DNA from: a virus
Lineage: Duplodnaviria; Heunggongvirae; Uroviricota; Caudoviricetes
Length of the DNA: 14,152 bases
Strand: one strand, 5' to 3'
IMG/VR virus record: IMGVR_UViG_648276651_000001
Location: 1-14,152 of that record
The position numbers and the translations under genes are program-made. The notes beneath the pieces were generated by a model. The model did not search any database. It was given only the letters and a program-made list of their open reading frames with translations, and was not told the origin of the DNA. Positions within the stretch are counted from its first letter, which is position 1. Every line of letters starts with the position of its first letter. Of the stretch, positions 13,253 through 14,152 are shown one piece after another.

Positions 13253-14152
13253 TCAGCTCTTAACAAATGCAGAGTCGTTTCTATTTATACTTTCTTGTCT
13301 GATTAGCGCTCTTTCTGTTTTTTTCTTCTTCTGGTAATAACCAGCCAGAAGGAGCATCATCGACATTACTTTATAAGACATGTAGATATCGATCATCAGC
13401 ATGTTTATACAAAATGCGATAATACATAAAGACATTGTTGGTGATAATCTCTTTACGCGCATGAGGAACATCACGAACAGTAATAGCCCTATAATTCCCG
13501 TCTCTGTAGTGATCCTCAACCAGCCACCATCAAGTGCATTTCCAAATGATCCAGCCCCGACGCCTATCATCCAGTACATAGGATGCGATAGATATAATTT
13601 AACGGCGTAAATCCATTTAATACCCCTCATGCTCCAGCTTGCATCAACCTCATCCCCCCTGGAAAGAACGCCCAAATCACCCCATGACGGAACTGATTCT
13701 GTAATCCTTACAGATGAATATGAGTCGAGTAACTGATCTATATTATCACTGTTCATGAGGCTATCTGAACGGGTAGCAACTGTACTATCCCCAAAGAAGA
13801 AATAAACTGCAAACAGTAATGGAATGACAACTAGGCATCTTTTAATGATGGTAACCAGACTTGCACTAAGCTTCATATACCATATCAGAATGACAATCTG
13901 TGCAAGCAAAGACATCCTTGATCCTGTCATCATTATAATTAATGTTGCGACACCGAATATGATATATTTCTTAAACTCGCTCTTTTCTTCCGCAAGAAAA
14001 TAGCATGTAATAAAGTTAAGTATAACCCCAAGTTCCCAAGGCCCGCTAGTTAATCCAATTACGCGCTCAGACATGTTTGGCTGATAACCTCTAACGTTGA
14101 ACCCGCCAACAACTCCAAAGTGCTGAGAGATCCCCTCATAATTTCCCCAAAA
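13253..14152 (-). CDS. O-antigen polymerase/ligase family (Wzy/WaaL-like, Wzy_C-type) integral membrane protein; 5' end outside the window
   Basis: Minus-strand frame is open from the stop at 13253 to the window edge (codons continue ...FWGNYEGISQHFGVVGGFNVRGYQPN before the M at 14074). Several hydrophobic helices, one large hydrophilic loop, then MIGVGAGSFGNALDGGWLRITTETGIIGLLLF, which resembles the signature region of O-antigen ligase-family proteins. Visibly AT-rich. Confidence 0.55.
   Translation of the reverse strand, partial: FWGNYEGISQHFGVVGGFNVRGYQPNMSERVIGLTSGPWELGVILNFITCYFLAEEKSEFKKYIIFGVATLIIMMTGSRMSLLAQIVILIWYMKLSASLVTIIKRCLVVIPLLFAVYFFFGDSTVATRSDSLMNSDNIDQLLDSYSSVRITESVPSWGDLGVLSRGDEVDASWSMRGIKWIYAVKLYLSHPMYWMIGVGAGSFGNALDGGWLRITTETGIIGLLLFVMFLMRVKRLSPTMSLCIIAFCINMLMIDIYMSYKVMSMMLLLAGYYQKKKKTERALIRQESINRNDSAFVKS

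Follow-up and report, generated by a model that had tools for sequence, protein, structure and literature searches.

The window (the whole 14,152-nt stretch analysed here) belongs to a prophage whose host, to judge from sequence, is Klebsiella. Two plus-strand genes lead up to its last part: a tail fiber gene of 649 aa (10452–12401), identified with PHROGs and the receptor-binding gene upstream of the cargo, and the last gene of the tail/fiber operon, of 255 aa (12404–13171), with a weak match to phrog_4390. PHROGs matches to the fiber are limited to residues 1–140; only this N-terminal part, of ~140 residues, looks like fibers known from phages, and DNA homology to phages KpF5 and KPP5665-2 stops at about position 10792. 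Both genes are context here, the 255-aa gene lying outside the cassette described below; an identical 255-aa protein adjoins the intact cassette in at least seven other Klebsiella loci.

Convergent to the 255-aa gene, on the minus strand, is the cargo gene. Between the tail-fiber operon and this gene lies a bidirectional intrinsic-terminator hairpin (13205–13239), with a 16-bp stem, an A-run ahead and a T-run behind; its predicted free energy is -23.7 kcal/mol on the plus strand (z = -5.9) and -13.6 kcal/mol on the minus strand (z = -3.2). An earlier note on this DNA had described an AT-rich cargo separated from the tail genes by a strong bidirectional terminator, and this description holds for both strands of the hairpin and for base composition: GC is 0.40 over 13253–14122, against 0.55 over 7308–13171 and 0.57 over 10452–13171. 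By its layout, convergent behind the terminator, the cargo would form its own transcription unit. When the intergenic region between the divergent genes of intact loci was scanned for consensus promoters, none was found, so it is only the layout that points to independent expression of the cassette.

The minus-strand reading frame 13253–14152 runs for 300 codons without a stop until the TAA at 13253–13255. Its nearest database proteins match at E = 1e-184, far above chance; protein identity to two of its relatives, P0001 and P0002, is 99–94%, and the latter, the closest intact variant, represents 416 member sequences. At the DNA level the gene is 99.7% identical to intact alleles (loci L029–L038) up to 14122, and similarity to them breaks off at 14122/14123. 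The remaining 30 nt, CTGAGAGATCCCCTCATAATTTCCCCAAAA (14123–14152), lie inside the cargo gene and are identical at 30 of 30 positions to the ends of ISVsa5/IS10 copies (IS4 family) in many E. coli genomes. In intact alleles the junction reads CTCCAAAGTG followed by TTGAAGGATCGCAACGG; in the window, CTCCAAAGTG is followed by CTGAGAGATCCCC. The terminal inverted repeat of the element abuts its target precisely where homology to the uninterrupted alleles is lost. The end present is the one at which the transposase ORF terminates (at locus L002 the IS begins at 2008, with the end of the transposase CDS at 2021), and the window stops within the IS. FWGNYEGISQ, the first 10 codons of the ORF as read in the earlier note, is IS sequence. 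A longer IS, taking in 7 nt before the IS end that are common to the E. coli matches, was considered and rejected, because the intact allele fixes the junction; the E-value cut-off selects chance flank matches. The same IS10 insertion was not found among the 10 loci listed when it was sought via the neighboring 255-aa protein.

The cargo gene proper is therefore confined to 13253–14122 on the minus strand, the 3' 870 nt of the gene: 289 codons plus the TAA, encoding residues 132–420 of a 420-aa protein. Its promoter, start codon, and first 131 residues are absent from the window copy, which is an insertion-inactivated gene, a pseudogene in this genome. IS10 splits the gene after codon 131, so that promoter, start codon, and four to five predicted N-terminal helices are lost to it, and with them its function; an element with its gene so interrupted cannot remodel host polysaccharide, as had been suggested for the O-antigen. 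The frame is open to the window edge, as first read, but it is not the window alone that cuts it. Only one IS junction lies within the window, and the event may have been more complicated than a plain insertion.

In the cassette family at large, this gene has been destroyed repeatedly, whether by nonsense mutations or by IS elements (IS10, the IS903 type, and others), which hints at a fitness cost of, or fluctuating selection on, the cargo gene.

The portion kept in the window has the features first noticed, a large hydrophilic loop ahead of a GVGAGSF-type motif: in the translation, MIGVGAGSFGNALDGGWLRITTETGIIGLLLF lies C-terminal to a loop of ~85 residues. Against Pfam Wzy_C (PF04932) the fragment scores 28.4 bits (E = 1.7e-6), short of the gathering threshold of 31.7 bits; intact P0002 scores 26.4 bits and other members 16.9–28.8 bits, and precomputed Pfam matches of relatives are flagged “weak.” Scores are 25.3 bits for O-ag_pol_Wzy (PF14296; E = 7.7e-6, curated cut-off 26.6 bits) and 28.9 bits for TIGR04370 (E = 5.7e-7, curated cut-off 40 bits). 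HMM searches, proposed earlier as a check, accordingly return Wzy/WaaL-family matches at E-values of 1e-6 to 1e-7, but every curated Pfam or NCBIfam cut-off is missed. As to topology, the other check proposed, the intact 420-aa protein has about 11–12 membrane helices. Its AlphaFold model (pLDDT 85.3, pTM 0.86) shows about 12, with a loop spanning residues 241–330; in helix number, and in the big periplasmic loop ahead of the last helices, the model has the form of a GT-C_B fold. With this model Foldseek returned WaaL (7TPG; E = 4.5e-6, TM about 0.5), then FtsW (2.5e-3), and beyond these two no match at E ≤ 0.001. A profile built from 34 homologs likewise matched WaaL 7TPG and no other PDB chain. 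The assignment of the protein to the Wzy_C superfamily, as Wzy/WaaL-like, thus stands on HMM, profile, and fold.

Conserved residues divide between the two parts of the protein. Invariant R32, D34, D35, R92, E95, and Y96 fall in the N-terminal part missing from the window copy, and the invariant R200, R249, and R297 are all within the portion kept. These three arginines align with R191, R242, and R265 of WaaL 7TPG, and R200 also with R215 of E. coli K-12 WaaL, so that the periplasm-facing arginines by which WaaL binds the Und-PP donor have counterparts in the family. No histidine is invariant across the 34 homologs; in GVGAGSFGNALDGGWLRITTETG, between the GxGxG motif and the helix that follows it, there is no counterpart to the essential histidine of WaaL (H337 in E. 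coli), and an invariant D329 is found instead. By hhalign, the family profile matches E. coli WaaL over 65 columns only, and epsilon15 gp21 with a probability of 0.2%. A tblastn search of 50,697 phage records with the intact protein found no match, PHROGs and PADLOC hold no family for it, and BFVD yielded no structural match; the gene is therefore absent from these isolated-phage resources. A reading as a defense system was also considered; with no matching family in PADLOC or PHROGs it is unsupported.

Intact relatives occupy a consistent position. In four phage architectures the gene is convergent to a receptor-binding gene and just downstream of it. In Klebsiella lambdoid prophages the cassette lies behind the fiber genes at the prophage end; in a P22-like prophage of E. 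coli EC3 the order is tailspike, gene, beta-helix gene, dacD; in a phiV10-like prophage of E. coli R18 the cassette stands in place of phiV10 oac or epsilon15 gp21/gp22; and in a myovirus-type prophage of Serratia fonticola the gene is directly behind the tailspike. The location is that of a conversion module, and the receptor-modifying position proposed earlier is confirmed by relatives filling the epsilon15 gp21, phiV10 oac, and P22 gtr slots. Host genes (dacD or a PBP gene) begin right behind the cassette in the Klebsiella lambdoid and E. coli P22-like prophages, and the GC content of the cassette is unlike that of the phage, as would be expected if it were not phage cargo at all but a chromosomal islet abutting the prophage end near a dacD-like gene. 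This is extremely unlikely: in E. coli R18 and at Klebsiella locus L033 the cassette is prophage-internal, with receptor-binding genes on one side and holin/endolysin genes on the other, and the four phage architectures in which a receptor-binding gene precedes it are unrelated and lie at different chromosomal sites.

What lies beyond the IS may be judged from the intact relatives. The cassette is an AT-rich pair of divergently transcribed genes, the partner of the polymerase-like gene encoding a 436-aa right-handed beta-helix protein, for which a first search gave at least six matches. The divergent pair is kept down to 45–50% identity for the polymerase-like gene and 25–29% for the partner, and it stays together and divergent across phage, island, and cps contexts. 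All seven aligned partners begin with an RR-x-F-L type N-terminus, a twin-arginine (Tat) motif; this motif and the hydrophobic segment are invariant, even where K. aerogenes and Brenneria have the pair in a chromosomal polysaccharide locus free of phage genes. The earlier note had expected a polymerase inhibitor or a glycosyltransferase just past the window; in its place intact relatives have this Tat-signal protein. No glycosyltransferase is found beside the gene in them, and no small two-TM inhibitor of the epsilon15 type in the intact loci, where the candidate was rejected because the small neighboring ORFs are soluble.

The partner is 30–35% identical (E = 1e-39 to 1e-57) to tailspikes with Tail_spike_N or Head_binding anchors and to the tailspike of an E. 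coli HS prophage; its match to phrog_15455, “tail fiber,” has E = 1e-45. A structural model predicts a carbohydrate-active beta-helix fold whose top matches are mannuronan C5-epimerases (AlgE), not hydrolases; by sequence, comparison with the PDB gave only noise and no chain was matched. Such homology could mean that the two genes form no functional unit, the beta-helix protein being a second virion tailspike and the membrane protein an unrelated exclusion or “moron” protein whose gene just happens to have a receptor-binding gene on either side. In some dual-tailspike phages the second spike is attached via a very short N-terminus. The phiHS3 preprint (bioRxiv 10.64898/2026.05.19.726188) reads the equivalent gene, CDS_0019, as a virion spike. 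For the cassette family this reading is nonetheless very unlikely: the anchor domains of tailspikes are missing from the partner, its PHROG match covers the catalytic part only, beginning at profile position 168 of 652, and both the signal sequence, unchanged at 25–29% identity even where there is no phage, and the constancy of the pair argue against a virion role. The pairing suggests instead that some prophage “second tailspikes,” as annotated, are not virion proteins.

Whether the intact membrane protein polymerizes or ligates is best approached through its more distant relatives. Those with 31–39% identity are co-oriented members of ordinary Wzx/Wzy clusters, where their neighbors are glycosyltransferases, an initiating transferase (Bac_transf), a Wzx flippase, or Wzi. 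Relatives in clusters of this type come from Mucilaginibacter (L026), Tolumonas (L018), Chlorobiaceae (L017), and K. aerogenes (L011), the window gene itself being phage-borne. The K. aerogenes copy, 50% identical, is flanked on one side by wzx, a pyruvyl-transferase, and a GT2, and on the other by rmlBADC-ugd. A peptide-pattern scan of genome contigs contributed nine distant loci, used for context and too few for statistics. The contexts found are prophages, islets, and Wzx/Wzy clusters rather than waa clusters. Since distant relatives hold the polymerase position, to go by sequence and neighborhood the intact protein is more likely a Wzy-type polymerase than a ligase.

The ligase alternative would have a WaaL-like enzyme moving Und-PP-linked glycan (capsule units, for example) onto lipid A-core or another acceptor, displacing native O-antigen and so blocking O-antigen-specific phages. 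WaaL is the nearest solved structure and has the arginine triad in common, relatives carry the database name “O-antigen ligase family protein,” and a lysogen of phiHS3, with an “O-antigen ligase” in its gtr slot, resists an O-antigen-specific but not a capsule-specific phage (bioRxiv 10.64898/2026.05.19.726188). The phiHS3 gene is tied to the cargo family by layout and description, however, and with the catalytic histidine of WaaL unmatched and distant relatives lying in Wzx/Wzy rather than waa core clusters, we consider a ligase, and with it the displacement of O-antigen, rather unlikely.

As to substrate, Klebsiella O-antigens are made by an ABC-transporter route and are not known to use Wzy, so capsule is a likelier substrate in this host than O-antigen. 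The earlier note was thus right about the Wzy/WaaL family of the enzyme, but its O-antigen target does not suit a Klebsiella host. It had in effect proposed a functional O-antigen polymerase or ligase, cut only by the window and serving O-serotype conversion in the manner of epsilon15 and D3, with an inhibitor or glycosyltransferase beyond. Membership in the Wzy_C superfamily, the epsilon15-like layout of tailspike, terminator, and convergent Wzy_C gene, and the replacement of phiV10 oac by the same cassette in E. coli, where O-antigens are mostly Wzy-dependent, all agree with this proposal. Taken whole it is improbable, given the IS10 insertion, the ABC-transporter dependence of the host O-antigens, and the presence of a Tat beta-helix protein where the inhibitor or glycosyltransferase should be; further, the cassette-bearing E. 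coli EC3 is a K47-capsule strain whose O-antigen locus is deleted (bioRxiv 10.64898/2026.05.19.726188).

On balance, then, the end of the window probably holds an insertion-inactivated prophage cargo gene for a Wzy-family polysaccharide polymerase of GT-C_B fold. As conversion-type cargo the gene is of a known kind; its partner is unusual, and in this genome it is dead. Where the cassette is intact, both proteins would work at the periplasmic face of the lysogen. Their target would be a surface polysaccharide made by the Wzx/Wzy route, in Klebsiella most probably the capsule, taken either as the nascent chain or as repeat units still linked to undecaprenyl pyrophosphate. The polymerase would link repeat units, perhaps by another linkage, and the exported beta-helix enzyme may cut or trim the polymer; the altered receptor could then block adsorption of related phages.

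The constant pairing with a Tat-signal, tailspike-derived enzyme suggests a conversion mechanism so far undescribed. We offer it tentatively, as a possibility that we hold to be less probable than not: Wzy polymerase and tailspike depolymerase domain, with a Tat signal replacing the virion anchor, could together make up a mobile “inside-out tailspike” conversion system. In its periplasm the lysogen would cut or edit the polysaccharide that is its own phage receptor and re-polymerize it differently, the enzyme would take the role of the small polymerase inhibitor of epsilon15 and D3, and the module would move among phage architectures, at least four of them, and capsule loci on the chromosomes of Enterobacterales. 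In Klebsiella, phages mainly use the capsule as their receptor; it is also a vaccine target and a typing antigen, and K-type is now predicted from the K locus only. If the cassette re-polymerizes or trims capsule, genome-based K-typing and predictions of host range for phage therapy would be wrong for its carriers, as was shown with WzyPh1 in A. baumannii (PMC9241936).

Among known systems, the arrangement is most readily compared with that of epsilon15, whose proven beta O-antigen polymerase gp21 is likewise a membrane protein of the Wzy_C superfamily; its gene directly follows that of the tailspike, in convergent orientation and with a terminator between them. At 40 bits, however, gp21 scores above the Pfam threshold, whereas the cargo family falls below it, and pairwise similarity between the two is undetectable at the hhalign probability given above. 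The partner of gp21, gp22, is a small alpha-polymerase inhibitor (a two-TM peptide), in contrast to the Tat-signal beta-helix protein of the cassette, and epsilon15 acts on O-antigen, whereas the likely substrate of the cassette in Klebsiella is capsule. Wzy-beta and Iap of Pseudomonas phage D3 are of the same kind as gp21 and gp22. Oac of phiV10 and GtrABC of P22 share the slots of the cassette and its orientation to the tailspike gene, and are proven to block superinfection through an altered receptor glycan; they acetylate or glucosylate O-antigen and belong to other protein families. WaaL of Cupriavidus metallidurans (7TPG), the best structural match with its aligned arginines, is about 16% identical to the cargo protein, and differs from it in having the catalytic histidine and in belonging to a waa core cluster rather than to Wzx/Wzy clusters and phages.

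phiHS3 resembles the E. coli EC3 prophage in layout, with tailspike, Wzy_C-type gene, and short beta-helix protein, and its cassette is probably the equivalent of that considered here. Most homologs of its beta-helix protein come from prophages of Klebsiella and Escherichia and have about 35% identity to tailspikes, and its lysogen is resistant to an O-antigen-specific phage and sensitive to a capsule-specific one (bioRxiv 10.64898/2026.05.19.726188). This phenotype, the only one reported for a cassette of this sort, fits a ligase-type or other effect better than capsule rewriting. Its authors took the two genes separately, as ligase and virion spike, with no mention of a Tat signal or of the pairing.

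For a polymerase directed at capsule, the closest functional precedent is WzyPh1, from an A. baumannii prophage, an extra Wzy whose substrate is the repeat units of the capsule and which alters the linkage between them, as shown by polysaccharide structure determination (PMC9241936). The likeness is one of function, the cassette being known from sequence; WzyPh1 comes from another host and is reported without a beta-helix partner. For the partner, a precedent is WceF of Pantoea stewartii, a tailspike-like glycosidase encoded in a Wzy-dependent exopolysaccharide cluster, with a Tat signal and a right-handed beta-helix, which shortens chains and whose loss lengthens them (PMC7949094). The partner shares its Tat signal, beta-helix, and likeness to tailspikes, but WceF is a trimeric, chromosomally encoded protein of 736 aa, whereas the partner is phage-borne, has 436 aa, and finds its best folds among the AlgE epimerases.

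The minus-strand ORF at the end of the window had been described in the earlier note as a polytopic membrane protein gene resembling O-antigen ligases, more AT-rich than the tail genes and set off from them by a strong bidirectional terminator; these observations are correct, except for the cause proposed for its truncation. The frame runs from 14152 to a TAA at 13253-13255, 300 codons without a stop, and its translation is hydrophobic, with a hydrophilic loop of ~85 residues followed by MIGVGAGSFGNALDGGWLRITTETGIIGLLLF. The gene proper (13253-14122; the "cargo gene") has a GC content of 0.40, compared with 0.55 in the J-fiber region and 0.57 across 10452-13171. 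Between its stop codon (13253) and that of the convergent 255-aa ORF ending the tail/fiber operon (13171) is a hairpin (13205-13239) with a 16-bp stem, an A-run on one side, and a T-run on the other, predicted to be stable on both strands (-23.7 kcal/mol, z = -5.9 on the plus strand; -13.6 kcal/mol, z = -3.2 on the minus strand).

The ORF is cut not by the window edge, as had been supposed, but by an insertion sequence. A megablast search of 12400-14152 against E. coli genomes returned ~170 short matches annotated "IS4-like element ISVsa5 family transposase," confined to the final ~37 nt of the window; in E. coli O39 an identical 30 nt (CTGAGAGATCCCCTCATAATTTCCCCAAAA) terminate such an element, whose transposase CDS ends 14 nt inside it. 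In intact Klebsiella alleles, which match the window at 99.7% identity, CTCCAAAGTG is followed by TTGAAGGATCGCAACGG; at the same site the window has CTCCAAAGTG followed by CTGAGAGATCCCC. Since the two diverge after CTCCAAAGTG, where the window becomes identical to the IS end, the junction is at 14122/14123, and the ORF codons FWGNYEGISQ belong to the IS. The window probably stops at the IS10 through a contig break in the repeat, with a single IS junction in view. It retains residues 132-420 of a protein of 420 aa and lacks the promoter, the start codon, and residues 1-131, among them invariant R32, D34, D35, R92, E95, and Y96. The gene is therefore not functional in this element, contrary to the role proposed for it there: the window holds only a dead copy, and it is the clade of intact relatives that is worth an experiment.

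The closest intact variant (P0002, 420 aa, with 416 member sequences) is 94% identical. An HMM search, proposed as a check, bore out the family assignment in part: the window fragment and the intact protein both match Wzy_C, O-ag_pol_Wzy, and TIGR04370 at E 1e-6 to 1e-7, all under the curated cut-offs. A 34-homolog profile found one match among PDB sequences, the WaaL ligase 7TPG (E = 4e-4), with invariant R200, R249, and R297 aligned to its R191, R242, and R265, and R200 aligned also with R215 of E. coli WaaL. The AlphaFold model (pLDDT 85.3, pTM 0.86) has a periplasmic loop at 241-330 and ~12 helices, where the earlier note had looked for at least about 8; its structural matches were WaaL (E = 4.5e-6, TM ~0.5) and FtsW (2.5e-3), with nothing besides WaaL at E <= 0.001. 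Profile, arginine alignment, and predicted fold together support membership in the GT-C_B (SEDS/WaaL/Wzy) superfamily, as the resemblance to O-antigen ligases and polymerases had suggested. The family is small and discrete, with 578 50%-identity clusters at E <= 1e-3 among 1.84 billion.

Within this superfamily, the main rival to a polymerase is a ligase-type activity. The essential H337 of E. coli WaaL lies within VHLHNEIIEAG; the corresponding stretch of the cargo protein is ALDGGWLRITTETG, with an invariant Asp, and no invariant histidine was found in the 34-homolog alignment. Relatives at 31-39% identity are co-oriented within ordinary Wzx/Wzy clusters: in Mucilaginibacter with wzx, rml, GT2, and Bac_transf genes, in Tolumonas with aminotransferase, epimerase, GT2, and Bac_transf genes, and in a Chlorobiaceae MAG with GT1 genes and Wzi. 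The K. aerogenes copy (50% identical) is flanked by wzx, pyruvyl-transferase, and GT2 genes in one direction and by rmlBADC-ugd in the other. The usual home of WaaL genes is the waa core cluster. Histidine position and gene context both lead us to favor a polymerase.

In every intact enterobacterial locus the cargo gene is divergently paired with a gene for a 384-484-aa right-handed beta-helix protein (PF13229), and this pairing persists in K. aerogenes, Pectobacterium, and Brenneria, where identity is 45-50% for the polymerase-like protein and 25-29% for the partner. All seven aligned partners have an N-terminal twin-arginine motif (NRREFII..., KRRDFLM...ALA, SRRLFLK..., SRRFFLK...) and a hydrophobic segment. 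Their catalytic part is 30-35% identical to virion tailspikes with Tail_spike_N/Head_binding anchors (E 1e-39 to 1e-57), and to an E. coli HS prophage tailspike; phrog_15455 ("tail fiber protein") is matched only from profile position 168 on. The partner model (pLDDT 85, residues 1-40 disordered) is closest to AlgE mannuronan epimerases (TM up to 0.77), followed by Sf6, HK620, and phi29 tailspikes. Motif, homology, and modeled fold point to a putative carbohydrate-active enzyme, whether hydrolase, lyase, or epimerase, with predicted periplasmic export. There is a precedent for such a partner beside a Wzy-type gene in WceF of Pantoea, a tailspike-like glycosidase with a Tat signal, encoded in a Wzy-dependent cluster and involved in chain-length control (PMC7949094). 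A polymerase inhibitor or glycosyltransferase had been suggested as a possible neighbor of the cargo gene; the partner is neither, and the small adjacent ORFs were ruled out as inhibitors, being predicted soluble.

The 137-nt divergent intergenic region of an intact Klebsiella cassette (L029, 8113-8249; the equivalent lies beyond window position 14152) has 93% column identity among Klebsiella and E. coli copies, with the flanking genes less conserved. Two palindromes lie within it, AGCTTTAAGAGTAAAGCT and ATGATCTGATCAT, of which the second includes a pair of GATC sites; no sigma-70 consensus was found in the region. By analogy with gtr operons, it may be the site of a putative regulator or Dam-dependent switch. 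In Brenneria (L025, 14946-16136) the pair is flanked by toxin-antitoxin genes and adjoins a polysaccharide cluster that already includes a Wzy_C gene scoring above threshold (35.9 bits); here a single cluster naturally has two candidate polymerases. In Serratia rhizosphaerae (L009/L010, 9331-10482) the homolog and an Acyl_transf_3 (Oac-like) gene converge, a different pair of surface-glycan modifiers, and an IS3-family element occupies the expected partner site.

Among the loci listed with an identical 255-aa neighbor, seven of 10 have an intact cargo gene. In two Klebsiella loci (L031, L034) the equivalent of window 13744-13752 is the site of an IS903-type element, flanked by a duplication of 9 bp (TATCACTGT); in a third (L003) the 5' end of the cargo gene bears an IS5-family element, and the partner gene an ISL3. 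The truncated products P0048 and P0059 end in ALLNKSDFG, a read-through of the IS903-type repeat; another locus (L036) has a 319-aa product, and in E. coli R18 a TGG codon has become TAG. Insertions into the cassette thus recur (IS903-type, other IS5-family, ISL3, and the window's IS10; also P0077), reflecting either a preference for AT-rich targets or selection against the cassette.

O-antigen, the substrate first proposed, is probably wrong for a Klebsiella host, where O-antigen assembly follows the ABC-transporter pathway and does not involve Wzy. Group 1 capsules of Klebsiella and E. coli are Wzy-dependent (PMC12220298), and the K. aerogenes homolog sits within a capsule-type locus. E. coli EC3, a cassette carrier, is reported to have lost its O-antigen locus by deletion and to make a K47 capsule of Klebsiella type (bioRxiv 10.64898/2026.05.19.726188), and in A. 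baumannii a phage-encoded Wzy alters capsule linkage (PMC9241936). By inference from these cases, capsule is the likelier substrate. The K47-specific, P22-like phage phiHS3 has the same gene layout as the EC3 cassette, and by that likeness of layout its cassette is probably the same. A phiHS3 lysogen is reported to resist an O-antigen-specific phage and not a capsule-specific one (bioRxiv 10.64898/2026.05.19.726188). If the cassettes are the same, this argues for a surface effect, one that a ligase would explain no less well than would capsule rewriting by the polymerase we favor.

The window comes from a Klebsiella pneumoniae prophage, a lambdoid siphovirus like HK97 and HK022, and corresponds to its tail module; it is ~90% identical at 339-10792 to phages KpF5 and KPP5665-2. 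By DNA comparison, the similarity to isolated phages gives out near 10792, after ~115 codons of the fiber gene, and none of the 50,697 phage records has a counterpart of the distal fiber, of the 255-aa ORF, or of the cargo gene. Matches of the 649-aa fiber to known phage families are limited to its first ~140 residues; a Pfam search with the distal fiber and the 255-aa ORF gave none, and phrog_4390 only a weak one. The receptor-binding module (10452-13171) is common across Klebsiella genomes. The KpF5/KPP5665-2 homology is in two pieces, together only about half of the window, and at 2750-5250, ahead of and within the tape-measure gene (3516-5969), are AT-rich stretches (GC 0.37-0.47, with ~0.53 on either side); these suggest a mosaic tape-measure region, with small AT-rich ORFs at 2776-3470.

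Among 5,426 complete E. coli genomes, only four have the cassette. Just behind the tailspike gene, the E. coli HS prophage phiHS4 (L039, 7001-7056) has a 56-nt remnant of the beta-helix gene 3' end, followed by the small ORF (WP_000555017.1) that trails the cassette in EC3: a deletion scar, marking the right boundary of the cassette. Behind a lambdoid tail module and cassette, one Klebsiella genome (L033, 8250-11465) has genes of the phiV10/epsilon15 type for a holin, a GH19 endolysin, and a DUF2514 protein, an order resembling that in R18, which implies that cassette and lysis genes moved as a block between podovirus-type and siphovirus-type prophages.

In prophage relatives the cargo gene always follows, and is convergent to, the receptor-binding gene. 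The order is J, fiber, 255-aa ORF, cargo gene, partner, and prophage end in Klebsiella lambdoid prophages; tailspike, cargo gene, partner, and dacD in the P22-like prophage of EC3; and tailspike, cassette, and holin/endolysin genes in the phiV10-like prophage of R18 (91% identity to phiV10). In a myovirus-type prophage of Serratia fonticola, the cargo gene is directly behind a Tail_spike_N tailspike, at the prophage end. That one position recurs in four architectures is strong evidence, from context, that the gene is receptor-related cargo for lysogenic conversion, the role originally suggested. Phage-borne Wzy polymerases are already known as a kind; what sets this clade apart is a constant tailspike-like partner, putatively exported by Tat, and an occurrence in four types of phage as well as in chromosomal capsule loci. 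Known phages have other genes in the same places: P22 has gtrABC where EC3 has the cassette, and at its site in R18, phiV10 has oac ([quoted passage not shown]), while the genes there in epsilon15 are gp21, a Wzy_C match of 40 bits, and the gp22 inhibitor.
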